Positions 6-11,716 are shown, counted from the stretch's first letter. The stretch is 13,472 nt of DNA from Promethearchaeota archaeon (GCA_048941015.1 JBHLNZ010000035.1:18294-31765); one strand, 5' to 3'. Numbers and translations: made by a program. Notes: a model not told the origin generated them from the sequence alone.

Positions 6-497
6 TTGAATAATGATGATAAAATTAAAGTAAAAAAAATTTTAGATGCATTTGAAAATGAAAATGGTAATACTATCTCATTACTTCAACAAATTCAAGA
101 ACAATATGGTTACTTACCTGAATATATATTAAACTATCTTTCCGAAGAACTAAAAATTCCAATCGCTAAGATCTATGGTATTGCTACCTTTTACTCGCAG
201 TTTTCTTTTACCGAAAAAGGAAAATATGTTATAACATGCTGTGATGGAACTGGATGTCATGTAAAAGGGACTCCTCTATTATTGGAATACCTCGAAAATC
301 AATTAAATATCAAATCTGGGCAAACTACAAAAGATAAAATGTTTACTCTAGAAGTTGTTAGGTGTTTGGGCTGTTGCGCAATTTCACCTGTATGTATTAT
401 TAATAACAAAATTTACGGGAATTTAAATATAAGAAAACTAGCAAAAATTCTTAAAAAATTAGAAAAAGAAGAAAAAATTAGCCTGAGCCCAAAATGA
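6..497 (+). CDS. nuoE: NuoE/HydC(BfuC)-like thioredoxin-fold [2Fe-2S] subunit
   Basis: Motifs LQQIQEQYGYLP, GIATFYSQF, C-DGTG-C and C-LGC-C give the Cx4C...Cx3C [2Fe-2S] ligands. TTG start at base 6; the true start could lie just upstream of the window. Its stop overlaps the next start (ATGA, 494-497). Confidence 0.93.
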   Translation: MNNDDKIKVKKILDAFENENGNTISLLQQIQEQYGYLPEYILNYLSEELKIPIAKIYGIATFYSQFSFTEKGKYVITCCDGTGCHVKGTPLLLEYLENQLNIKSGQTTKDKMFTLEVVRCLGCCAISPVCIINNKIYGNLNIRKLAKILKKLEKEEKISLSPK

Positions 498-2302
498 CCC
501 AAATTAAAAAAAGAGAAGTATTAATTTGTCGTGGCACCGGTTGTAATTCTCTTAATGCACAAGGAGTAAATGATAAATTAGAAGATTTAATTAAAAAATC
601 AAACTTACACGACTTTATACATATTAAGCGGACAGGGTGCCATGGTTTTTGCCAAATAGGGCCAACATTGATTATTAAGCCAGATAATGTAATCTATGTT
701 GTTCAACGACCTGAAGACATGGAAAATGTCGTTGAACAACATCTTAAGAGAGATACAGTAGTTAAAGAATTATTATATATTAATCCTGTTAATGGAAAAT
801 ATATTCAAAATAAGGATGACATCCAATTCTATAAAGCACAACAAAGAATAATAAGTGCAAATTGTGGTGAAATTGATCCTCAGGATATTGATGAGTATAT
901 TTCATTAGGTGGATATGATCTATTAAAAAAATGTTTAGTAGAATTGAACCCCCAGGAAGTAATTGAAGAGGTTAAAAAATCTCGATTGCGTGGGAGAGGT
1001 GGAGCTGGATTTCCAACAGGATTGAAGTGGTCATTCTGTGCTAGCGCTAAAGGCTCTCCAAAATATTTAATATGCAACGGTGATGAGGGAGACCCTGGTG
1101 CGTTTATGGATAGAGCCATTTTAGAAAGTGATCCACACTCTATCATTGAAGGCATGGCAATAGGCGCATATGCAATAGGCGCATCATATGGATATGTCTA
1201 TATTCGTGCTGAATACCCATTAGCCATTGAAAGATTTGAAATTGCATTAAAGCAAGCAAAAGAGAAAGGTTTCATAGGTAAGAATGCTAAAGGTATATTT
1301 AAAAAGCTAAAATTTGACATTGAATTACAAAAGGGTGCTGGTGCTTTTGTATGTGGTGAGGAAACTGCTTTAATGCAATCCATCATAGGAAAACGTGGTA
1401 ATCCTATGCCAAAACCACCCTATCCTGCTAACTCAGGATTATATGGTAAACCAACAAATATAAATAATGTAAAAACTTGGGCTAGTATTCCTAAGATCTT
1501 TGCAATGGGTGCAGACAATTACTCAGCTATAGGTTCAAAAGATGCTTCTGGCACAATTATTATAGCTCTTACAGGAAAAATAAATAACGGCGGTCTTGTT
1601 GAAATTCCAATGGGTACAACTATTAGAAAGCTGATTTTTGATATTGGAGGTGGAATTCCAGATAATAAAAAATTCAAGGCAATTCAAATTGGTGGTCCCT
1701 CGGGAGGTTGTATTCCGGCAGAATATTTAGACACTCCTATGGATTATTTGCATTTAACAGAATTGGGAGCGATTATGGGTTCTGGTGGGTTAATTGTTCT
1801 CGATGAAGATACATGTATGGTTGAATTGGCTCATTTCTTTATCAATTTTGCTCAAAAGGAATCATGTGGGAAATGTATTCCATGTAGAATTGGAACTAGA
1901 AAAATGCTACAAATTATTGAAAAAATTAAAGATGGACAAGGTACTTTAGAAGATCTTAAAAAATTAGAATCAATTGCCATTCTTGTAAAAAATGCTAGTC
2001 TCTGTGGTTTGGGACAAACCGCACCGAATCCGGTATTAACAACATTGAAATATTTTAGAGATGAGTATGAAGCACATATAAAAGGGATTTGTCCTGCTAA
2101 AGTTTGTAAAAACTTTATAGAATATAAAATTGTTGAAACAAAATGTACGTTATGTAATCTATGTGTAAAAAATTGTCCAGTACTTGCAATTGAGGGTAAA
2201 AATAATAAACCTCCTCGAATTAATTCCACAATTTGTACTAAATGTGGAGTATGTTTTAGCAATTGTCCTTCTAATTCAATTATCAAAATATCTAAAGGTT
2301 AA
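494..2302 (+). CDS. nuoF: NuoF/HydB(BfuB)-like FMN/NAD(H)-binding subunit, long bifurcating-type architecture
   Basis: N-terminal [2Fe-2S] domain (CRGTGC, GCHGFC). Core motifs GRGGAGFPTG, CNGDEGDPGAFMDR, GAGAFVCGEETAL, FKAIQIGGPSGG and ESCGKCIPCR...SLCGLG. Also HIKGICPAKVC and two C-terminal CxxCxxCxxxCP ferredoxin motifs. Confidence 0.95.
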   Translation: MTQIKKREVLICRGTGCNSLNAQGVNDKLEDLIKKSNLHDFIHIKRTGCHGFCQIGPTLIIKPDNVIYVVQRPEDMENVVEQHLKRDTVVKELLYINPVNGKYIQNKDDIQFYKAQQRIISANCGEIDPQDIDEYISLGGYDLLKKCLVELNPQEVIEEVKKSRLRGRGGAGFPTGLKWSFCASAKGSPKYLICNGDEGDPGAFMDRAILESDPHSIIEGMAIGAYAIGASYGYVYIRAEYPLAIERFEIALKQAKEKGFIGKNAKGIFKKLKFDIELQKGAGAFVCGEETALMQSIIGKRGNPMPKPPYPANSGLYGKPTNINNVKTWASIPKIFAMGADNYSAIGSKDASGTIIIALTGKINNGGLVEIPMGTTIRKLIFDIGGGIPDNKKFKAIQIGGPSGGCIPAEYLDTPMDYLHLTELGAIMGSGGLIVLDEDTCMVELAHFFINFAQKESCGKCIPCRIGTRKMLQIIEKIKDGQGTLEDLKKLESIAILVKNASLCGLGQTAPNPVLTTLKYFRDEYEAHIKGICPAKVCKNFIEYKIVETKCTLCNLCVKNCPVLAIEGKNNKPPRINSTICTKCGVCFSNCPSNSIIKISKG

Positions 2303-2307
2303 AAAAA

Positions 2308-5300
2308 ATGAGTAAAAAATTATCTTTTAAAATAGATAACAAAATTGTAGAGTTTTCAGAAGGTCAGACAATTTTACAAGTTGCTAAAAAAGCTGGAATT
2401 TATATTCCTACATTATGTTATATTGAAGATTTAAAACCGTATGGAGGTTGCCGATTATGCACCGTGAAAGTTGTTGGGGAAGGTAAACCACTAGTAACTG
2501 CTTGTTCTACCCCTGCTACCCAAAATATGGAAGTGATTACTAAGGATGATGAATTGCAAGATTTAAGAAAGGATATTTTGAAATTACTATTAAGTGAACA
2601 TCCCTCTTCGTGTTTAGTATGTGATCATAAAGATCAATGTGAGAATTTAAAGTATACGAAGAATAAATTTGGAAGGATGTTTGGCTGCTCTTCCTGTTCA
2701 AAAAAATTAACTTGTGAAATAAGAGAGATTGCTGATTATTTACAAATAGATGACATTCCATATGAACTTGAATATAGGAATTTGCCTCTTAAAAGAAATG
2801 AACCCTTTTTAGAAATAGATCCTAATATGTGTGTTTTATGTGGAAAATGCGTTAGGATTTGTAATGAATTGAGAGGGATTGGGGCAATCTCTCTCATAAA
2901 TCGAGGATATGATACCCAAGTTTCAACTGCCTTTGATAAATTACTTATAGATTCTAATTGTCAATTTTGTGGGGCATGTGTTGATATATGTCCTACGAGT
3001 GCATTATCCGTAATTAATTCAAAATGGGTAATAAATGTTGATGATATCGTAACTTCTACATGTGGGTTTTGTAGTGTAGGGTGTGGGTTTGATTATTATT
3101 CAGTAAGCGATAAAATAGTTAAATCAATTCCAAATAAGGATTGTGAAATTAATAAAGGACAATCATGTGTAATTGGAAGATTTTGTACAGTTCCATTCAT
3201 TAATGGGAAAGATAGGTTGAAATATCCATTAATAAGAAGGAATGGAGAATTAATTAATTGTAATTGGGATGAAGCTTATAATTCCATAATAGAAAATTTG
3301 AAAAAATATCGTCCAGATGAAATTGCTATATTAGCATCTCCTGATTTATCTAATGAATCCGCGTATGTTTTACATAAATTAGCACGCAAAATTGTAAAAA
3401 CTAATAATCTATTTACTAAAATCGATGGCAATTCAGTAGATATAATTAATGATTTATCGAAACAACTTTTCAATAAGGATTTTTATCCAGCATCATTTAG
3501 CACTATTGAAAATTCAGATCTAATTTTATTGATAAATGCAGATATTCAAAAAACGCATCCTATTTTATTGATAAACTTAAAAAAGGCAAAAGAAAATAAT
3601 GCAAAAATAATTTCTATAAACATTGGTGAATATAACTTACCATTTGAAACAGAAAGTTTGGTAGATATCAAAATAAATTTATCGATAGAAGGAATTAATG
3701 TCAAATTTTCAAGAGATTGGACTGAGCACCTTCATAATGATTCTAATCTAAATTTAAAAATTTCATCTAAAGATCTTAATCTCTTAATTTTACTATTAAA
3801 CAAGTATTTTTTAAAGCATGGAAAATATAAATCTGATCTCATTGAGAACTTCAAAGAATTTAACTTTTGGATTCAAAATCATGAAATTCTTGATGAGGAA
3901 AACAAGTTTGAGGAATTTTTTAATAGGATTTTAAATAATTGTTCAAATAATAAAATTACTATAATTTTAGGTCATTTAAATAAGATATCTAAAAATTATT
4001 TAAGAGATTTGATTGGAACAATCTTTAATTTGCGAATTCTCCTGAATAATAATTTAGATGTAATCCCATTATGGAATAGATCTAATATAGCTGGTGTGTT
4101 TCAAAATATATTTAATAATTCTATTGATTCTCAAGATAAAATTTTTAATGCAATTAGAGAAGGAAAAATCAAACTATTATATACAACTGAAAGAATTGAA
4201 AATATTGAATTGATAAAGTCAATCGAGTTTTTAATAATACAAGATATTTACCCTTCAGAAATGATGCAAATTGCTAATGTTGTTCTTCCAACTTGCACTT
4301 TTATAGAAAGTTCAGGATCTTTTATTAATTCTGAGCAAAAATTATTAACTTTTGAGAAGAGTACTTCAAATATTGGACAATCTCAACCAGATTGGAAAAT
4401 TTTCAGTGACTTAGCTAAAAAATTTGTTAACAATTTAAACATTAAGGATTTCGAATATTCAAATTCTAATGAAATTTTAAATGAATTGAAATTAAACAAT
4501 TTTCATTTTAAAGAACCCTCAACAATTAAAATGGATAACTCTTCTAACAAACTTAACTTATATATTCCTAGGTTAGAATTAGTTCCTTTAATCAATGAAA
4601 AACCATTTAAATTGAATGAATTCATATATCGTGGTGAAATGATTTCAGAGCAAGTTCCTGATCTTAGAAAACTAATAAAATATAGAAATATAAAGGAATC
4701 AAAAAAAGCAGTAAAAGTAAAACAAGAGAAATTACAAAAAACAAACTATAAGGTTAAATCAATTGAAGAAGTTGCTTTAAATATTTATAAAATTGTAATA
4801 AGCATACCATTTATACCTGCAAAGGCCAAACCAGGTAACTTTATTATATTAATGAAAGATGAAAAAAGTGAGAGGATTCCGTTAACATTATCAGATTGGA
4901 ATGTTGATGAAGGAACTATAACCGTATATGTACAAGATCGAGGTTTTTCTACTCAAGAGTTAACCAGATTAAAAAAAGGAGATTATATCTACAGTATTGT
5001 TGGACCGTTAGGTAACCCTATTGAAATTAAAAAGTATGGAACTGTATTATTAGCTGCTGGGTGTTATGGAATAGGAGCAATTTATCCAATTGCAAAAGCT
5101 TTGAAAGCAGCTGGAAATAAAATAATTATAGTTTTAGAAGCTAGAAATAAAAACTTTTTTTATTTAGAAAAAGAGTTTGAGGAAATTGCAAACAGAATTG
5201 AATATTTTACTTCCGATGGATCCAAGGGAGAAAAAGGAAAAATAAATCTTATTATTGAGAAATTATTCAACAAAATCTTTATAGATCAATGTTATTTTAT

Positions 5301-5616
5301 AGGTTGCAATCAAATGATGAAAGAAGCTTCAGATATAACAAAAACAAGTATTAAAATTCCAACTTTTGTAAGCTTGAATACAATAATGATAGATGGAACA
5401 GGATTATGTGGAGGATGTCGATTTACCTTAACTCAGGAAGGTAAAAAAATCACAAAATTTGCTTGTGTTGATGGACCGATTTTTGATGGTCATCTTGTTG
5501 ATTGGGACTTATTGATTGAAAGAGGTATTAACTATAGCGATTCTGAAATTGATGCATATAGAAGTCATAGATGTAAAGCATTAGAAAAATACGAATTTAA
5601 TGAAATTAATGATTGA
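2308..5616 (+). CDS. Fusion: NuoG/FdhA-like Fe-S scaffold with degenerate molybdopterin-oxidoreductase domain (aa ~1-810) + NfnA/SudB-like FAD/[2Fe-2S] domain (aa ~813-1102)
   Basis: Fe-S motifs: IPTLC...GGCRLC...TAC [2Fe-2S], HPSSCLVC His-ligated cluster, CVLCGKCVRIC, CQFCGACVDICP, and TCGFCSVGC...C. Mo-pterin fold motifs DRLKYPLIR, WDEAY, QDIYPSE, VVLP..FIE..GSFIN.E, PDWKI. C-terminal NfnA motifs AKPGNF, ERIPLT, GPLG, MIDGTGLCGGCR, CVDGPIFDGH. Confidence 0.9.
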   Translation: MSKKLSFKIDNKIVEFSEGQTILQVAKKAGIYIPTLCYIEDLKPYGGCRLCTVKVVGEGKPLVTACSTPATQNMEVITKDDELQDLRKDILKLLLSEHPSSCLVCDHKDQCENLKYTKNKFGRMFGCSSCSKKLTCEIREIADYLQIDDIPYELEYRNLPLKRNEPFLEIDPNMCVLCGKCVRICNELRGIGAISLINRGYDTQVSTAFDKLLIDSNCQFCGACVDICPTSALSVINSKWVINVDDIVTSTCGFCSVGCGFDYYSVSDKIVKSIPNKDCEINKGQSCVIGRFCTVPFINGKDRLKYPLIRRNGELINCNWDEAYNSIIENLKKYRPDEIAILASPDLSNESAYVLHKLARKIVKTNNLFTKIDGNSVDIINDLSKQLFNKDFYPASFSTIENSDLILLINADIQKTHPILLINLKKAKENNAKIISINIGEYNLPFETESLVDIKINLSIEGINVKFSRDWTEHLHNDSNLNLKISSKDLNLLILLLNKYFLKHGKYKSDLIENFKEFNFWIQNHEILDEENKFEEFFNRILNNCSNNKITIILGHLNKISKNYLRDLIGTIFNLRILLNNNLDVIPLWNRSNIAGVFQNIFNNSIDSQDKIFNAIREGKIKLLYTTERIENIELIKSIEFLIIQDIYPSEMMQIANVVLPTCTFIESSGSFINSEQKLLTFEKSTSNIGQSQPDWKIFSDLAKKFVNNLNIKDFEYSNSNEILNELKLNNFHFKEPSTIKMDNSSNKLNLYIPRLELVPLINEKPFKLNEFIYRGEMISEQVPDLRKLIKYRNIKESKKAVKVKQEKLQKTNYKVKSIEEVALNIYKIVISIPFIPAKAKPGNFIILMKDEKSERIPLTLSDWNVDEGTITVYVQDRGFSTQELTRLKKGDYIYSIVGPLGNPIEIKKYGTVLLAAGCYGIGAIYPIAKALKAAGNKIIIVLEARNKNFFYLEKEFEEIANRIEYFTSDGSKGEKGKINLIIEKLFNKIFIDQCYFIGCNQMMKEASDITKTSIKIPTFVSLNTIMIDGTGLCGGCRFTLTQEGKKITKFACVDGPIFDGHLVDWDLLIERGINYSDSEIDAYRSHRCKALEKYEFNEIND

Positions 5617-5658
5617 AGTTAAGGTAATTATAAATTAAATTGTAATTTTTAAGATAAA

Positions 5659-5663
5659 GAGGA
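5659..5663 (+). promoter_or_regulatory. Shine-Dalgarno-like site
   Basis: GAGGA ends 6 nt before the ATG at 5670, consistent with an internal cistron of an operon. Confidence 0.45.
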
Positions 5664-5669
5664 TTTTAA

Positions 5670-8402
5670 ATGGAAAAAAATACTCCTTTAATTGACATTT
5701 TACTTACAAATATGAATAAAATTCTAAAAATTGAAAAATATGATGAAATTAGAATTGAAAGTTTCATTAATTCATTAATAAAGGCAGAAAATGAAAGACA
5801 AAAGATTTTAAGAAAAATTAAGCAAATAAATAAAATAGATCTCCAACAATTAAAAAGTGAATTAGGAATACCTGAAAGAACTTTAATATATAATATTGAA
5901 TATTTAAAAGAATTGGGAAATTTAGAATTCATCGGAGAAAAATCTTTATTCTCTCAGGAAATTAAAGAAAAAAGTAAGAGTGAAGGGATTTTTCCTGATG
6001 TTTCAATTATCAGAGATGACCTTATATGTTGTGGATGCGGTTTATGTCAATCAATCTGTCCAGTAAATGCAATAGAATTTTTTGATGAAACATTTGAAAT
6101 CGATGAAGAAACATGTATTAATTGTGGGTTATGCTACGCTTGTTGTCCTCGATCATTCTATCCAAAGGAATTAAAAAGATCACTGGAAGAGAAACCAAAT
6201 GGTCTTAAATATTTAGAGCAATTAAATTATTATCGAGATATATGTAGAGCGCGAACTAAAGATCCTCATCTTAAAGAAGTCACTCAAGATGGAGGAGTTG
6301 TAACTTCATTACTTCTTGCTGCTTTTCGGATGAATCTAATTGATGCTGCTTTAGCCGTAGGCATATCAGATAAACCTCTAAAACCTTTTCCACTTATAGT
6401 CTCAAAAGAAGATGATTTACTACAAACAGCTGGAACGAAATATAGTAATTGTCCATCACTAAAAATATTAGATGATGCTTACAATTATAAAAATATTGCA
6501 GTTGTTGGCACTCCATGTATGATGGAATCTCTCCAAAAAATTTCTTTTTATCCTTTAAATAAGCCTTTATTTGATAATATAACTTTAAAAATTGGATTAT
6601 TTTGTATGGAATCATTTGATTATAACAAATTAATTGATTTTATAAAGACAGAGTTTTATAAAAATCCTGAAGAAGTTAAAAAGATGGATATAAATAAAGG
6701 GAGGATTTACATTTTTGATAAGCAAAATAAAATGTTTGACATTCCTTTAAAAAGAATTAAAAAGTATGGTAGGTTTGGATGCTTTATGTGTGATGACCTA
6801 ACTGCTGAACAAGCAGACATTTCTATAGGATCTATTGGTTCGGATTTCGGCTGGTCAACTGTGATTATAAGGACTGAAAAAGGAGCTAAACTATTTGAAA
6901 AAGCATTGAATATTAATATGATCGAAAAAGAAGAAATTAAAGAGGATAGTAAAAGCTTTCATTTGATTCGTACGATTTCTGATTCAAAAAAGAAAAAATA
7001 TTTAGAAATTCAACGCCAAAAGATGATTGAACAATTTCCTAATGATAGAATAAAAAACTTTAAAGAAGTACCAAAAGGTTATACAACTGAAATAGCTTTG
7101 TTAGAAAGCTCCAGATGCTTACAATGTGGTAATCCGTTATGCATTACTGGGTGTCCAGTAAATATTGACATTCCTGAATTTATTCGGTTAATAAGAAAAG
7201 AAAGATTTCGCGAAGCTGCACAAAAAATTTTGGAAACAAACTCTCTTCCTGCTGTATGTGGAAGAGTATGTCCTCAAGAAAATCAATGTGAAGGAGAATG
7301 TCTTCTAGGTAAAAGATTTAAACCTATTTCTATCGGTAATTTAGAACGATTTGTAGCTGATTTTGAGAGAAATAATAGAAGTTTTTTTATTCAAAAGAAA
7401 GAAGTTATAAAAAATATAAAGGTGGCAATATTAGGAAGTGGTCCAGCAAGTCTTACTGTTGCAGGCGATTTGGTAAAACTAGGATATGATGTTACTATTT
7501 ATGAAGCATTCCATAAAGGTGGTGGTGTTTTAGCTTACGGAATTCCTGAATTTCGCTTGCCAAAAAATATTGTAGATTCTGAAATTGAATATATTAAATC
7601 ATTAGGTGTTAATATCGAATACAATGTGATTATTGGAAAAACTTTAACGATTGATGATTTAAAAGCAATGGGATATGAGGTTATTTTCATTGGAATTGGA
7701 GCAGGTTTACCAATATTTTTAGGTATACCTGGAGAAAATTTAAAAGGTATTATTTCAGCTAACGAGTTTTTAACTAGAGCAAATTTAATGAAAGCGTACC
7801 GATTTCCAAATTATAATACACCTATTAGAATTGGGAAAAAAGTAATTGTTGTTGGAGGTGGAAATGTAGCATTAGATTCCGCAAGAACTGCCTTAAGGCT
7901 AGGTGCCGAAAAAGTTATAATAATTTATAGAAGATCTGAGGTTGAGATGCCAGCCAGGAGAGAAGAATACCATCATGCTTTAGAAGAAGGAATAGAATTT
8001 CAGTTTTTAACAAACCCAATAAGATTCATTGGAGATCATAATGGTAATGTTAAAGAAATAGAAGTTGTAAAAATGAGATTAGGAGATCTCGATCAATCAG
8101 GACGTAGAAGACCTATTCCTATTGAAAATTCAGAATATTTTATCGATGCTGATACAATTATAGTTGCGCTGGGTACTAAAGCAAACCCAATTCTTACAAG
8201 GTCAATTCCAGATTTAAATTTGAATAAATGGGGATATATTGAGACCGATGAAGATGGGCAAACTAATTTAGAAGGTATTTTTGCTGGAGGTGATATAGTG
8301 ACCGGTAGTGCGACAGTTATTTCGGCAATGGGAGCCGGAAAAAAAGCAGCAGTGGCAATTGATAAATATATCAAAAAAAAGTATAAGGAAAAAAATAAGT
8401 GA
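5670..8402 (+). CDS. Fusion: putative winged-HTH + 2x[4Fe-4S] + FrhB/FdhB F420-binding domain (aa ~120-445) + NfnB/SudA (GltD-like) NADP(H)-dependent flavoprotein (aa ~449-910)
   Basis: Ferredoxin motifs CCGCGLCQSICP and CINCGLCYACCP. FrhB motifs QDGGVVTSLL, AGTKY, VGTPC, IGLFCMESF, GC..C.D....ADIS.GS.GS..GWSTVIIRT.KG. NfnB motifs NFKEV, RCLQC...C..GCPV.IDIP, CGRVCPQENQCE, GSGPA, YGIPEFRLPK, GGGNVALD, YRR, AGGDIVTGSATVISAMGAG. Confidence 0.92.
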   Translation: MEKNTPLIDILLTNMNKILKIEKYDEIRIESFINSLIKAENERQKILRKIKQINKIDLQQLKSELGIPERTLIYNIEYLKELGNLEFIGEKSLFSQEIKEKSKSEGIFPDVSIIRDDLICCGCGLCQSICPVNAIEFFDETFEIDEETCINCGLCYACCPRSFYPKELKRSLEEKPNGLKYLEQLNYYRDICRARTKDPHLKEVTQDGGVVTSLLLAAFRMNLIDAALAVGISDKPLKPFPLIVSKEDDLLQTAGTKYSNCPSLKILDDAYNYKNIAVVGTPCMMESLQKISFYPLNKPLFDNITLKIGLFCMESFDYNKLIDFIKTEFYKNPEEVKKMDINKGRIYIFDKQNKMFDIPLKRIKKYGRFGCFMCDDLTAEQADISIGSIGSDFGWSTVIIRTEKGAKLFEKALNINMIEKEEIKEDSKSFHLIRTISDSKKKKYLEIQRQKMIEQFPNDRIKNFKEVPKGYTTEIALLESSRCLQCGNPLCITGCPVNIDIPEFIRLIRKERFREAAQKILETNSLPAVCGRVCPQENQCEGECLLGKRFKPISIGNLERFVADFERNNRSFFIQKKEVIKNIKVAILGSGPASLTVAGDLVKLGYDVTIYEAFHKGGGVLAYGIPEFRLPKNIVDSEIEYIKSLGVNIEYNVIIGKTLTIDDLKAMGYEVIFIGIGAGLPIFLGIPGENLKGIISANEFLTRANLMKAYRFPNYNTPIRIGKKVIVVGGGNVALDSARTALRLGAEKVIIIYRRSEVEMPARREEYHHALEEGIEFQFLTNPIRFIGDHNGNVKEIEVVKMRLGDLDQSGRRRPIPIENSEYFIDADTIIVALGTKANPILTRSIPDLNLNKWGYIETDEDGQTNLEGIFAGGDIVTGSATVISAMGAGKKAAVAIDKYIKKKYKEKNK

Positions 8403-8561: not shown

Positions 8562-9686
8562 ATGACTCAAGAATATAGTATAACTGCTAAACTTGGTCCT
8601 TCTATTGGAAGTTCTATTCGAAATTGGATGAAGTTAGTTACTAGCAGTGGCTTTGTGGATTTAAAATATTATCCACGAGTATTTCTAGTAGATTTCATTA
8701 GTGCTATCGGAATTCCTTTTCGCATTTATGAAAATTTAAGATTTAATGATAAAATATATTCAACAGATTTGAAAGTTCCACCTTTATTTATTTTAGGCCA
8801 TTGGAGAAGCGGAACAACTCATATCCATAATTTGATGTGTCAGGATCCTCAATTTGGCTATATTACTATGCTAAACGCCGCATTTCCTAAGTCTTTTATA
8901 AGTAACAATTTTTTTAAATGGATTATGAAAAAATTAATGCCCAAGAAAAGACCAATGGATAACATGGAGATGGGAATTAATAATGCACAAGAAGAAGAAA
9001 TGGCCCTAGGAAATTTATTTCCATATTCCTTTTACAATGCATTTTACTTTCCACGAAGATTAATAGAATTTTATCATAAATATGTTCGATTTGAAAATAT
9101 ATCAAAAAAAATTAAAAAACAATGGAAGAAAGTTTATTATTTTCTACTCAAGAAAGCTACATTATATATGAACGGAAAAAGACTCGTATTAAAAAACCCA
9201 GCAAATACAGCTCGAATTAAATATCTTTTAGAAATGTTTCCAGATGCTAAATTCATTCATATATACAGAAATCCGTATGATGTCTACGGTTCCACCCAAA
9301 TACTTTACCAAAAAATGATGAGAGCATTTATGCTTCAAAAAATCTCAGATAAAGCTTTAGAAGAAGACATCTTTAGAGTTTATAGAGAAATGATGAGGAC
9401 TTACTTTGAAGAGAAAAAATTAATTCCTAAAGGTAATTTAGTGGAAATTAAATTTGAAGACTTAGAAATTAAACCTCTCGATCAATTAGATAAAATCTAT
9501 TCTGCTTTAAATTTAACAGGTTTTGAAGACGCAATCCAATATTTTAAAACCTATCTTAAAACTTTAATCAACTATAAGAAAAATAAATTTGAATTAGATA
9601 ATCAAACAATTGAAAAAATATCAAAAAATTGGAAATTCACTATTGATAAATGGGGCTATGAGGTTCCTAGATTTAATTTAAGTTAG
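8562..9686 (+). CDS. PAPS-dependent sulfotransferase (Sulfotransfer_3 / Stf3-like family)
   Basis: 5'-PSB loop FILGHWRSGTTHIHNL, RPMDNM...QEEE, LKNP.NTAR, and 3'-PB motif HIYRNPY.V..S. Confidence 0.9.
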   Translation: MTQEYSITAKLGPSIGSSIRNWMKLVTSSGFVDLKYYPRVFLVDFISAIGIPFRIYENLRFNDKIYSTDLKVPPLFILGHWRSGTTHIHNLMCQDPQFGYITMLNAAFPKSFISNNFFKWIMKKLMPKKRPMDNMEMGINNAQEEEMALGNLFPYSFYNAFYFPRRLIEFYHKYVRFENISKKIKKQWKKVYYFLLKKATLYMNGKRLVLKNPANTARIKYLLEMFPDAKFIHIYRNPYDVYGSTQILYQKMMRAFMLQKISDKALEEDIFRVYREMMRTYFEEKKLIPKGNLVEIKFEDLEIKPLDQLDKIYSALNLTGFEDAIQYFKTYLKTLINYKKNKFELDNQTIEKISKNWKFTIDKWGYEVPRFNLS

Positions 9687-9784
9687 TTTGAATCTACTTC
9701 TTTATCTCACCAACTTATATTTTTAAGCAAATGTAGCTGCAATTTTTACTTTTAAAGAATAATATTAAAATTATAATATTCTTT

Positions 9785-10648
9785 TTATTTTGGAATTCCT
9801 ATTGGACAAATTTTTAAACAATATGAACAATAATTTTTATCTATTAAAGCTTCTATGCATTTAGAACGATTGATATATGTGATTATTCCCGATTCTTTTT
9901 TTATAGGATCTTTATAAACAGCCCCTCCTAAACAGTTTTTTACACATGAACCACAATTATTGCAAAAATCTTCCAATTCATCAAAGTTTCGTTTTGATCT
10001 TATAGGAATATTCGCATCAGTAGTAATCATGCTCCATCTTTGTCTTGGTCCAAATTCAGGTGTGATTGTAAGTCCACTTCTACCTAAAATTCCTAATCCC
10101 GCTTCAACAACATGTGGTCCATATAATAATTTACCTCCGAAGGGATGATGTGCTTCACTTTTATACCCTTGATCCTTTAAATATTCAGTTAATTCGATAG
10201 TAACATCACCTAATACTTTATATACTCTAAATACTTCTATTTGACAATTCGCACTTGGAGCTGTTTCGATGCCATTAAGCCATTTCATTTCCATACCCAG
10301 AATAATTCCATTTTTCCCATACACTTTTAGATCTTTAAAAATATAATTCTCATTAACTGGAACATACCCTATAAAGTCTACGTCAAGCTGTTTTGCTCTC
10401 TCTTCAAACATATCCCAAAAGCCTGCAGATACTTCTTCTTTAATATTCCTTTCATTCCCATATTTAGTTTTTCGTGCTTGGTCGAATCCTTTAAAAGTTC
10501 CTCTCATATATTTACTAAAAATTTTTGCTGTTTCGCGATCGATTACTTCTGGAGGACCCGCACTCATAGAGAAAAGTTCTTTCGGAATGATAAAGACCAA
10601 ATTTTCATTTTTACCAATATATGTTGGTTTAATACCTACATCAGACAT
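9785..10648 (-). CDS. Reductive dehalogenase/QueG-superfamily cobalamin- and 2x[4Fe-4S]-binding protein, paralog 1
   Basis: AGLG..GR.GL.ITPEFGPRQR...ITTD, FCxxCxxCxxxC and Cx9CxxCxxxCP. No Tat signal. The substrate cannot be determined from sequence. Confidence 0.8.
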   Translation of the reverse strand: MSDVGIKPTYIGKNENLVFIIPKELFSMSAGPPEVIDRETAKIFSKYMRGTFKGFDQARKTKYGNERNIKEEVSAGFWDMFEERAKQLDVDFIGYVPVNENYIFKDLKVYGKNGIILGMEMKWLNGIETAPSANCQIEVFRVYKVLGDVTIELTEYLKDQGYKSEAHHPFGGKLLYGPHVVEAGLGILGRSGLTITPEFGPRQRWSMITTDANIPIRSKRNFDELEDFCNNCGSCVKNCLGGAVYKDPIKKESGIITYINRSKCIEALIDKNYCSYCLKICPIGIPK

Positions 10649-10669
10649 ATAAATTCTATTTATTTACTT

Positions 10670-10693
10670 AAATAAAAAAATTTTTACTTTTGT
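10670..10693 (-). promoter_or_regulatory. Conserved upstream element (putative BRE/TATA promoter) of paralog 1
   Basis: Minus-strand ACAAAAGTAAAAATTTTTTTATTT at -45..-22 from the ATG; 23/24 identical to the copy at 11738-11761. Confidence 0.65.
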
Positions 10694-10772
10694 GTATATA
10701 TAATAGAAAGAGCAATACTTTAATGTTGGAAACTTATTTTCTTACAGACTCCATTCTAATTTAGGAAATGGC

Positions 10773-10847
10773 AAAATAAAAAAAAATTGGAAATTTACTA
10801 TTGAGAAGTGTAGCTATAAAGTATCAAAATTAAAAAATGCATTTTAA
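10773..10847 (+). pseudogene. Remnant of a second sulfotransferase copy (3' end only)
   Basis: 10781-10817 matches 9623-9659 at 32/37 nt. It translates KIKKNWKFTIEKCSYKVSKLKNAF* versus KISKNWKFTIDKWGYEVPRFNLS* in the intact gene. No ATG occurs in frame after the stops at 10701-10706. Confidence 0.75.
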
Positions 10848-11716
10848 TTTTTTACCCCATGAGGGCATACTTTTAAGCAATTAGAACAATAATTATTATT
10901 AATCAAACTTTCAATACATTTCGCACGGTCAATATGTGTTATCACACCAGAATCTTTGATTTTTTCAATAGGTTTTTCTAATGCTGCTCCTCCAAGACAA
11001 TTTTTGATACAAACACCACATTCCTCACAGAATTTTTTCATTTCACTAAAATCTCTTTCTTTTGTTTCAGGAATTTCAGCATCAGTTGTAATTACACTCC
11101 ATCTTTGTCTTGGTCCAAATTCAGGAGTAATGACAAGACCATTACGTCCCATAAATCCTAACTTTGCAGCAACTGCATGGGCAGTAAATAAAAGTTTCCC
11201 TCCAAAGGGATGATGAGCTTCGCTTTTATAGCCTTGGTTTTGTAAAAATTCAGTTAATTTTATTGTTCTTTCACCCAATTCATAGTAAACTCGAAATGCT
11301 TCCAGTCCACAATAAACACTGGGAGCAGTCTTAATCATATCCCATTTCATTTCCATACCAAGAATAATAGCATTTTTTCCTACGATAGGAAGATCTTTAA
11401 AGATATAATTCTCTAATACCGGAGTATAGCCAATAAGATCAATTCCATTATCCTTAACTAAATTTTCAAAATTATTCCAGAATTCGGGGCTTGTTTTAGT
11501 TCTTGTATTCGTTTCCTTATTATTATATTTTGTTTTATTAGCAACATCAAATCCTTTAAATGTTCCTCTTAAATATTTACTGAATTCTTTTGCTGTTGTG
11601 GGGTCTAACTTTTGTTCTGATGATAATTTCATTGTAAAAAGCTTTGTTGGAACAATAAAAACTAAATTCTCGTTTTTGCCAATATAAGTAGGCTTGACTT
11701 TCTTTTTAGCTTCCAT
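10844..11716 (-). CDS. Reductive dehalogenase/QueG-superfamily cobalamin- and 2x[4Fe-4S]-binding protein, paralog 2
   Basis: Same motifs as paralog 1 (LGFMGRNGLVITPEFGPRQRWSVITTD, FCEECGVCIKNC, CIESLINNNYCSNCLKVCP). Colinear with paralog 1, roughly 60% aa identity by eye. Confidence 0.8.
   Translation of the reverse strand: MEAKKKVKPTYIGKNENLVFIVPTKLFTMKLSSEQKLDPTTAKEFSKYLRGTFKGFDVANKTKYNNKETNTRTKTSPEFWNNFENLVKDNGIDLIGYTPVLENYIFKDLPIVGKNAIILGMEMKWDMIKTAPSVYCGLEAFRVYYELGERTIKLTEFLQNQGYKSEAHHPFGGKLLFTAHAVAAKLGFMGRNGLVITPEFGPRQRWSVITTDAEIPETKERDFSEMKKFCEECGVCIKNCLGGAALEKPIEKIKDSGVITHIDRAKCIESLINNNYCSNCLKVCPHGVKN

Follow-up and report, generated by a model that had tools for sequence, protein, structure and literature searches.

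In the literature, the NfnAB (NfnSL) and Bfu (NfnABC) types of electron-bifurcating transhydrogenase figure as two unrelated answers to one problem. Thermococcaceae species typically contain one of the two, either NfnSL or NfnABC (Xiao et al., 2025; PMC12018979). Four Nfn patterns were catalogued by Liang et al. (2019; PMC6405883), none of them with NuoG or FrhB. Schut et al. (2022; PMC9304861) defined Nfn-Bfu, with a GltD-like domain in BfuA, and a predicted F420-Bfu of Methanosaetaceae, with an FrhB-like domain in BfuA, and mentioned no NfnA/NfnB pair on a Bfu core. Here we describe a locus of an uncultured Asgard (Loki-type) archaeon in which a Bfu core, a complete NfnA/NfnB pair and an F420-reductase-type module are brought together by two gene fusions. 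The locus occupies positions 6-8402 of a 13,472-nt stretch of DNA (hereafter the window) from Promethearchaeota archaeon (GCA_048941015.1 JBHLNZ010000035.1:18294-31765; genome G000). Annotations of matching proteins (Promethearchaeota/Lokiarchaeota) likewise assign the genome to the Asgard archaea. To judge from the sequences, its four genes would, on balance, encode one soluble multi-flavin Fe-S complex linking NAD(H), ferredoxin, NADP(H), and F420. In agreement with an earlier note on this DNA, which knew of no characterised enzyme with this architecture, no characterised or published enzyme with this layout, or with either fusion, was found in the searchable literature (subscription-only papers being outside its scope). 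New here are the co-occurrence of both fusions in a single operon, the synteny indicating a replacement at the locus, trees of partner subunits that co-vary, and a GCYG/GC signature common to fused and split Bfu-linked NfnA.

Four open reading frames (ORFs) were called on the plus strand of the window, at positions 6..497, 494..2302, 2308..5616, and 5670..8402; all features of the operon are on the same strand. Based on Pfam, NCBIfam and PDB sequence searches, they encode, in this order, a BfuC/NuoE-like protein, a BfuB/NuoF-like protein, a 1102-aa fusion of a BfuA/NuoG-like part with NfnA (P0001), and a 910-aa fusion of a ferredoxin-FrhB module with NfnB (P0002). The first two genes overlap by ATGA (494-497), the second and third are separated by 5 nt (2303-2307), and the third and fourth by 53 nt (5617-5669), with GAGGA ahead of the ATG. 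Neither fusion frame has an internal stop, and the fusion junctions fall at approximately nt 4744 and 7014. The ORFs, gaps and domain boundaries thus bear out the description in the earlier note of four tightly packed co-oriented genes with both fusions open and joined at these two points.

The first two genes have the characteristic features of a bifurcating core. The BfuC/NuoE-like [2Fe-2S] subunit (6..497) was identified by PF01257 (2Fe-2S_thioredx, E-value 5e-48) and by the NuoE model NF005722 (143.8 bits, cut-off 141). The BfuB/NuoF-like subunit (P0003, 602 aa; 494..2302), which contains Complex1_51K and NADH_4Fe-4S, is composed of three parts recognized in Pfam: an N-terminal [2Fe-2S] domain (nt 494-778), an FMN/NADH domain with the N3 cluster (nt 872-2092), and a C-terminal 2x[4Fe-4S] ferredoxin domain (nt 2123-2284). 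Its full-length matches are bifurcating HydB/NfnB chains (7t2r_B, E-value 4e-236; 9n5u_B, E-value 3e-211), and residues 5-598 align end to end with 7t2r_B and 7q4v_B. The GGPSG loop and the equivalents of D195, A201, M203, and F281 of Thermococcus sibiricus NfnB (Tsi NfnB) are retained in the alignment, and the conserved stretches include DEGDPGAFMDR, GAGAFVCGEET, and GGPSGG. The four Tsi NfnB residues are reported to be conserved in Bfu enzymes and missing from non-bifurcating relatives (PMC12018979). The sequence features that define the Bfu family are all present, namely the three-domain layout and FMN-proximal residues of BfuB, the [2Fe-2S] cluster of BfuC, and the [2Fe-2S], His-ligated [4Fe-4S] and further clusters of BfuA. 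BfuB and BfuC are predicted to form a Bfu-type core with an intact bifurcation signature, active with NAD(H) and ferredoxin. The earlier note ascribed bifurcation in such cores to FMN; the involvement of a flavin stands, whereas the site is a flavin/Fe-S 'flavobicluster' and not the flavin alone (PMC12018979).

The third gene starts with a BfuA/NuoG-like Fe-S part (P0001 residues 1-300; 2308..3207), delimited by Pfam matches and by invariant columns in 64 homologues with the NuoG::NfnA fusion (alignment A1, which includes distant forms of ~36% identity). It contains ligands for a [2Fe-2S] cluster, a His-ligated [4Fe-4S] cluster (H98/C102/C105/C111), a 2x[4Fe-4S] unit, and a Molybdop_Fe4S4 cluster (C252/C255/C259/C287), and these, together with an extra C127/C130/C136 motif, are invariant across the 64 homologues. 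A cluster shared between the extra motif and the new Cys in NfnA was considered and rejected as unsupported, because the motif also occurs in a BfuA devoid of NfnA. This protein belongs to a closed 6.0-Mb genome of the same order (G055), where a NuoE-NuoF-BfuA (972 aa) cluster without an adjacent catalytic partner gene was observed (L052:2645-7887); its BfuA has the Fe-S part and the degenerate molybdopterin domain of P0001 and ends in a 2x[4Fe-4S] ferredoxin instead of NfnA.

The Fe-S part is followed by a degenerate molybdopterin domain of the formate dehydrogenase type (residues 301-710; 3208..4437), the best match of the BfuA part being the NAD-dependent formate dehydrogenase 6tg9_A. In the alignment to this structure, N375/S376 (nt 3430-3435) are found at the positions of Cys386/His387 of R. 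capsulatus FdsA. The Cys386 column contains Cys in none of the 64 homologues and is deleted in 24 of them, and no match to PF01568 (Molydop_binding, the domain IV cap) was obtained in P0001 with Pfam. The domain is poorly conserved (49% gaps in the insert 441-600), and it is predicted to be confidently folded, with predicted local distance difference test (pLDDT) values mostly between 85 and 96. Judged by these features, it is catalytically dead and would serve as a scaffold, a role that its confident fold would suit; the A subunits of StnABC/NfnABC are comparable. The 'NuoG-like' label of the earlier note therefore holds for the Fe-S domains and is corrected for the remainder, which is a degenerate formate-dehydrogenase-type domain without Molydop_binding. 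The fusion junction itself is a linker (residues 711-812; 4438..4743) recognized by its poor conservation (mean top-residue frequency 0.36) and in part by low pLDDT; in split forms of the locus (L103-L105) the gene boundary falls at the same position. The P0001 model built with the 64 homologues (mean pLDDT 80.1, predicted template modelling score (pTM) 0.76; scaffold and NfnA domains confident) is compatible with a defined domain arrangement and is not proof of one.

The locus has several features in common with the structurally described Nfn-Bfu enzymes StnABC/NfnABC (S. ovata, 8OH5; C. saccharolyticus, 9BOV; T. sibiricus, 9N5U). Shared are the BfuBC core with its bifurcation signature, the BfuA Fe-S chain with a degenerate molybdopterin-type scaffold, and the NADP(H) substrate, which is predicted for the present locus. 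The known enzymes, however, carry a single GltD-like domain within BfuA, whose FAD is a plain electron-transfer flavin, whereas here a complete two-domain NfnSL module retains the hallmark Arg of the bifurcating FAD and BfuA lacks GltD. Indeed, no Fer4_20 or Pyr_redox_2 domain was matched in P0001 with Pfam, PDB searches likewise gave no GltD domain in this protein, and the P0001 segment 113-165 is short at the site where 9bov_A holds GltD. The distinction from StnABC/NfnABC drawn in the earlier note is therefore upheld.

The C-terminal part of P0001 is an NfnA (NfnS/PyrK-type) domain (residues 813-1102; 4744..5613). Its residues 816-1084 match T. maritima NfnA (4ylf_A, E-values 7e-66 to 1e-64) and 5jca_S (E-value 4e-62). 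The a-FAD site and the [2Fe-2S] cluster with Asp/Cys3 ligands (D1029, C1034, C1037, and C1053, invariant in A1) are preserved. The motifs of the NAD pocket are replaced: G918-C919-Y920-G921 (nt 5059-5070) stands for GGGVG and G999-C1000 (nt 5302-5307) for GP. In FNR-type domains, both loops line the NAD(P)H cleft. GCYG and GC are invariant in all 64 fused copies of A1, whereas in solo NfnA of relatives GCYG was found in 0 of 39 and GP is kept at the second position; GGGVG is present in T. maritima and P. furiosus NfnA and in most solo NfnA of relatives. GCYG was also found in 98 stand-alone NfnA-like proteins among the 120 best shorter matches. All three of those whose context was looked up belong to nuoE/nuoF clusters, in which their genes directly follow a nuoG-like gene, and have both GCYG and GC. 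Since fused and split NuoG-adjacent NfnA share GCYG, the signature tracks the association with the Bfu module, fused or not, and offers a marker, open to test, of NfnA that functions together with a Bfu core. As far as sequence can tell, the NAD(H) site of Bfu-linked NfnA has been remodelled and is probably lost. Since the pocket motifs are replaced in all examined Bfu-linked copies, the complex would probably have one NAD(H) site, that of NuoF, and not two.

P0002 begins with a helical domain (residues 1-110; 5670..5999) conserved in 60 FrhB::NfnB homologues (alignment A2). Its predicted fold is all helical (pLDDT 80-93), and the N-terminal 115 aa gave only sub-threshold Pfam matches (CggR_N, E-value 9e-4; HTH_11, E-value 0.013), that is, a weak winged helix-turn-helix-like signal. 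Docking and regulation are both possibilities for its role. The same domain was observed in 505-508-aa FrhB paralogues of the same genome (C131, C137) and in all FrhB::NfnB proteins. Thus, the earlier assignment of this gene as FrhB plus NfnB stands, with the addition of a conserved ~110-aa N-terminal domain without a family match.

The second part of P0002 is an F420-reductase-type module (6006..7004) formed by a 2x[4Fe-4S] ferredoxin domain (residues 113-165) and FrhB (residues 185-445). It is covered by PF04422 and PF04432 (FrhB_N/FrhB_C) together with Fer4 families. The FrhB domain has a QDGG flavin motif and [4Fe-4S] ligands C283, C312, C371, and C374, these Cys being invariant in A2. The best solved match of residues 113-445 is 8riu_B (E-value 3e-54), followed by FrhB (3zfs_C, E-value 6e-51) and FwdI (8RJA). 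The first and last of these are known from Ca. Ethanoperedens, where assays and crystal structures of CO dehydrogenase (CODH) zeta (8RIU) and FwdI (8RJA) show that electrons are diverted to F420 in normally ferredoxin-reducing enzymes (PMC11493965). On the CODH and Fwd of this organism, the F420 reductase takes the place of ferredoxin or polyferredoxin. The order of domains is the same in those subunits, a 2x[4Fe-4S] ferredoxin domain and then FrhB with [4Fe-4S] and FAD. The difference is that they are separate subunits on CODH or Fwd, whereas the present module shares a chain with NfnB and follows the ~110-aa helical domain. The predicted F420-Bfu of Methanosaetaceae also combines a Bfu core with an FrhB-type F420 domain, and NADH/ferredoxin-F420 coupling has been proposed for it as well (PMC9304861). 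Its F420 domain, however, is located in BfuA without an Nfn module, whereas here FrhB sits on the NfnB subunit; both are predicted enzymes.

The FrhB-like module could instead be an internal Fe-S/flavin relay or act on another substrate, which would leave a three-carrier enzyme for NAD(H), NADP(H), and ferredoxin. The equivalog models score below their cut-offs (TIGR03289 frhB, 233 vs. 331.5 bits; NF006807, 255 vs. 269), some members of the family use ferredoxin (e.g., chlorophyll reductase 5dqr_A, which is among the matches), and the genome contains many FrhB paralogues. However, the top solved matches (8RIU/8RJA, FrhB, and Fsr) are all F420-reacting, and the FAD and cluster motifs are conserved. 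Furthermore, cofD, cofE, and cofG were found above curated cut-offs in the same genome (the evidence being the genes and not the cofactor itself). According to published work, Lokiarchaeial genomes contain a full F420 biosynthesis gene set, and Asgard archaea encode F420-dependent Mtd and Mer (PMC8498797). We therefore regard a module that does not react with F420 as distinctly improbable. Separately, a 610-aa FrhB::PyrK-like fusion was observed in this genome (G000:C27; L007:751-2583, minus strand), composed of FrhB_N/C, NAD_binding_1, and DHODB_Fe-S_bind, with orthologues of 608-614 aa in several congeners; in these proteins, the F420 module is fused to an NfnA-like electron-transfer domain.

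The remainder of P0002 is an NfnB (NfnL/GltD-type) domain (residues 449-904; 7014..8381) matching 4ylf_B (E-values 1.5e-176 to 1e-175) and 5jca_L (E-value 1e-156). It comprises an NADPH-binding domain, two [4Fe-4S] motifs, and a b-FAD site with R629, the Arg of GIPEFRLP. This Arg is invariant in the 60 homologues, as are the cluster Cys; in NfnSL, the equivalent Arg contacts N5 of the bifurcating FAD. In the P0002 model built with these homologues (mean pLDDT 77.7, pTM 0.66), the NfnB part superimposes on 5jca_L and 4ylf_B with template modelling (TM) scores of 0.86-0.88 (Foldseek). A C-P-(D/E)-C motif between the Fe-S and FAD domains (columns of P0002 residues 572-577) was observed in at least 90% of FrhB::NfnB proteins and is missing from T. 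maritima NfnB, P0002, P0006, P0091, and P0095; it may represent an additional metal or redox site. Its loss was considered as a marker of partners of NuoG-fused NfnA and discarded, as P0091 and P0095 lack the motif and yet occur with solo NfnA.

Taken as a pair, the two Nfn-type domains share with NfnAB/NfnSL the domain types, all cofactor ligands (Asp/Cys3 [2Fe-2S], two [4Fe-4S], and the b-FAD Arg), and the order nfnA-then-nfnB. In contrast to NfnAB/NfnSL, neither subunit is free, since NfnA forms the C-terminus of BfuA and NfnB has an N-terminal F420-reductase module, and the GGGVG/GP motifs of the NAD pocket are GCYG/GC. Grafting of NfnB on another bifurcating enzyme has a parallel in the HdrA-NfnB fusions of ANME-1, for which the authors suggest two bifurcation sites per protein (PMC9012536). 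The host there is HdrA and not Bfu, and those fusions contain neither NfnA nor FrhB.

That the NfnB-type domain is instead GltD, delivering electrons to a GltB encoded elsewhere in a nitrogen-assimilation setting, appears very unlikely. The TIGR01316 'gltA' model does score 583 bits against a cut-off of 472, homologues are named glutamate synthase in databases, and one relative has a NuoE-NuoF-short BfuA-GltB cluster and glutamate dehydrogenase (GDH) genes beside NfnA-FrhB::NfnB. The adjacent partner is nevertheless always NfnA, and the domain matches structurally defined NfnB with an E-value of 1e-176 and conserves the N5-contacting Arg. A GltB-type gene exists in the genome, but it lies on another contig: no match to GltB (PF01645) was obtained in or near the window, the whole contig of the window included, and the sole strong match is on contig C45.

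Both fusions were found together at three loci, those of the studied genome (G000), a congener (G022), and an unrelated ENA metagenome contig (L092). In the congener, the FrhB::NfnB protein (911 aa) is 82% identical to P0002, and the adjacent NuoG::NfnA, clipped by a contig end, is 76% identical to P0001. The metagenome contig contains a complete operon of NuoE (163 aa), NuoF (613 aa), NuoG::NfnA (1065 aa), and FrhB::NfnB (903 aa), the fusion proteins being ~58 and ~66% identical to P0001 and P0002, respectively. The double fusion is thus present beyond the studied genome, where the earlier note had proposed to look for it. Individually, the fusions are far from rare. The NuoG::NfnA fusion alone comprises well over 100 protein clusters annotated as Loki-, Thor-, Hel-, and Heimdallarchaeota, and among its shorter forms (~828 aa, 35-40% identity) is one with the annotation Planctomycetota bacterium; on the bacterial contig L095, NuoE-NuoF-NuoG::NfnA (828 aa) was found, the contig ending right after the fusion gene. 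The FrhB::NfnB fusion alone comprises ~97 clusters of ~905-930 aa.

The relatives form a graded series of arrangements: (a) plain NfnA and NfnB; (b) NfnA with FrhB::NfnB, the common form in the genus (~20/36 genomes); (c) split NuoE-NuoF-NuoG, NfnA, and NfnB (L103-L105); (d) NuoE-NuoF-NuoG::NfnA with plain NfnB (G042, G049, G057, and L096-L099); and (e) the double fusion (only G000, G022, and L092). NfnA adjoins NfnB in every variant, and split, singly fused, and doubly fused forms all occur. A second congener (G019) has solo NfnA and FrhB::NfnB at the same locus, with flanks 76-89% identical to those of the studied genome (AOR-ferredoxin on one side, a 290-aa Fe-S protein and an SNF2 helicase on the other). 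Its Nfn proteins are less similar to those of the studied genome (NfnA, 41%; FrhB::NfnB, 63%). The NuoEFG::NfnA cassette therefore holds the place of the solo nfnA in the G000/G022 lineage.

The phylogenies of the two Nfn domains are in agreement. Of the 45 NfnA domains placed in a tree, the five fused to NuoG group in a single long-stemmed clade (SH-aLRT support 100), whereas solo copies follow taxonomy. The NfnB domains that pair with NuoG-fused NfnA also cluster together in their own tree (SH-aLRT 94), with the FrhB-fused NfnB of G000 and G022 as the sister group of plain NfnB of G057, G042, and G049, and this clade of Bfu-linked partners is located beside the genus clade and not inside it. 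The partner subunits therefore co-vary, as expected of a physical interface. The constant adjacency of NfnA and NfnB, the graded fusion series, and the separate clade of NfnB partners all speak for the proposal of the earlier note that the NfnA-NfnB pair acts as the docking element.

The same data bear on the suspicion that the locus is an artefact or is decaying, the fusions being frameshifts or misassemblies and the AT-rich dead domain a pseudogene remnant. The sequence does come from a metagenome-assembled genome with 5% estimated contamination, its GC content drops to 0.23-0.25 in the scaffold domain, and a 10-N scaffold gap lies within the first nuoE codons, immediately before the window (G000:C85:18272-18293; L046:6273-6294). 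On the other hand, the frames are open, the cofactor ligands invariant, the domains confidently folded, and the flanks syntenic with congeners. Because independent assemblies and over 100 protein clusters show the same fusions, misassembly and frameshift are excluded for practical purposes, and an artefact of either kind is barely credible. The gap lies at the 5' end of nuoE, where an ATG 22 nt upstream of the window is the likely start; the real start is probably located upstream and not at the annotated TTG at window position 6.

From these observations we infer how the four proteins would assemble, in what stoichiometry, how they would be wired, whether they use F420, and in which direction electrons would flow. 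BfuB and BfuC would form the core bifurcating between NAD(H) and ferredoxin, to which BfuA would contribute its Fe-S chain, the dead formate-dehydrogenase scaffold, and the C-terminal NfnA domain. The NfnA domain would recruit the NfnB domain of P0002 via the canonical NfnA-NfnB heterodimer interface. NADP(H) would bind at the b-FAD of NfnB, whose two one-electron outlets would be rewired. The first outlet, the [4Fe-4S] pair of NfnB, which normally reduces free ferredoxin, would face the attached ferredoxin-domain/FrhB F420 reductase; in P0002, the FrhB module is joined immediately ahead of the [4Fe-4S] domain of NfnB, the ferredoxin-facing end of Nfn. The second outlet, the [2Fe-2S]/a-FAD of NfnA, which normally reduces NAD+, would exchange electrons with the BfuA Fe-S chain and the Bfu core. 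The net result would be a hub for NADP(H), F420(H2), NAD(H), and ferredoxin that probably redistributes NADPH from amino-acid and one-carbon (C1) metabolism. By our own arithmetic with the physiological potentials compiled in PMC9304861, such a four-carrier reaction can lie near equilibrium, and the hub would then be reversible.

A rather unlikely alternative assigns the same parts to an Nfn with outsourced sites. NuoE/NuoF/NuoG would be an NADH dehydrogenase module of the non-bifurcating kind known from complex I and NAD-dependent formate dehydrogenase and would stand in for the lost NAD site of NfnA, while FrhB replaces ferredoxin. The enzyme would then be an NADPH:NAD+/F420 oxidoreductase with the NfnB b-FAD as its sole bifurcating centre, if any. 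The replacement of the NAD-pocket motifs in all Bfu-linked NfnA copies and the position of FrhB at the ferredoxin-facing end of NfnB are as this scheme would have them, and the best match of the BfuA part (6tg9_A) is a non-bifurcating NAD-dependent enzyme. However, BfuB has the full bifurcating architecture and the D/A/M/F residues that non-bifurcating NuoF reportedly lacks (PMC12018979, PMC9304861), and its best full-length matches are all bifurcating enzymes. An extension of the four-carrier hub, a tandem double bifurcation with two centres of different mechanism, the NfnB b-FAD and the Bfu flavobicluster, in series in one complex, is doubtful to a similar degree. In this case, NADPH oxidation would drive the reduction of F420, NAD+, and ferredoxin together, or the reverse. 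The reaction 4 NADPH -> 2 F420H2 + NADH + 2 reduced ferredoxin would be approximately isoenergetic (acceptor mean ~-375 mV, donor -380 mV; our own arithmetic with the potentials in PMC9304861). With such a complex, an Asgard archaeon would level all four of its soluble redox pools by means of a single enzyme.

Several points weigh against the four-carrier hub. It is built on genes and their sequences for every member, and the continuous wires from BfuA to NfnA and from FrhB to NfnB are conjectural. The GCYG/GC change is only suggestive of NAD(H) loss, and a comparable change, GAYTG, occurs in P. furiosus Xfn. The frhB model TIGR03289 scores below its cut-off, and FrhB-family proteins are not all F420 users. 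The double fusion is rare (3 loci among ~97 FrhB::NfnB clusters), although this is true only of the combination. Finally, a Bfu core and a full NfnSL seem redundant, both being NADPH:NAD+/ferredoxin transhydrogenases (PMC12018979), and no energetic rationale for combining the two is apparent.

The recurrent natural merger of the two systems raises the questions of what the joining of two bifurcation centres achieves and whether electrons pass between them, and the series from plain through split and singly fused to doubly fused forms is a ready set of constructs for biochemical and cryo-electron microscopy dissection. Asgard archaea are the closest prokaryotic relatives of eukaryotes. The locus bears on how they balance NADPH, NADH, ferredoxin, and F420 in amino-acid fermentation and in tetrahydromethanopterin (H4MPT)-dependent C1 metabolism. 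The BfuB gene is the sole Complex1_51K (NuoF-type) gene found in the studied genome, and no solo NfnA was found in it; the complex is therefore the only Nfn-type system found there. In relatives, the recurrent neighbours of Nfn genes are GDH and an NAD(P)-type methylene-H4MPT dehydrogenase, and such NADP-linked neighbours fit a role in NADPH redistribution.

Upstream of the operon, beyond the candidate nuoE ATG, a long AT-rich divergent intergenic region is followed by an AOR-ferredoxin pair. Downstream of the operon, a scan for sigma-70 promoters and terminators gave nothing above shuffled sequences, these models being inapplicable to archaea. Window positions 8562-11716 differ from the corresponding region of the congeners G022 and G019, in which a single 290-aa Fe-S gene separates FrhB::NfnB from the SNF2 helicase. 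The studied genome has an extra sulfotransferase gene (8562..9686) and two copies of the ~290-aa protein with a C-terminal 2x[4Fe-4S] (9785..10648 and 10844..11716), which are 77-81 and ~62% identical to the single congener gene.

Related domains were observed in further combinations elsewhere. A GltD/NfnB-like stretch of the studied genome (G000:C84:5279-6505; L002), 47% identical to P0002 residues 489-903, is located within a 1665-aa open frame, which would encode a multidomain redox protein of unusual size. A further NfnA fusion was observed in the genome G049 (L080:1867-3978; G049:C333), where a 703-aa protein, NfnA-like in its C-terminal half and bearing a large insertion, is encoded beside a divergent NfnB (48% identity). 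The metagenome locus L093:3255-14642 (JGI 3300024265) contains NfnA-FrhB::NfnB, GDH, NuoE-NuoF, a 237-aa [2Fe-2S] BfuA-like protein, GltB (Glu_synthase, 526 aa), and a second GDH; its NuoE-NuoF-BfuA-like-GltB set is a possible Bfu-type glutamate synthase beside an F420-linked Nfn. On a contig of GCA_019057835.1 (L100:15081-16724), NuoE is followed by a 1055-aa NuoF::GltD fusion (Complex1_51K, NADH_4Fe-4S, Fer4_20, and Pyr_redox_2), and the same contig also bears NfnA-FrhB::NfnB and an Mpt_N-type methylene-H4MPT dehydrogenase.

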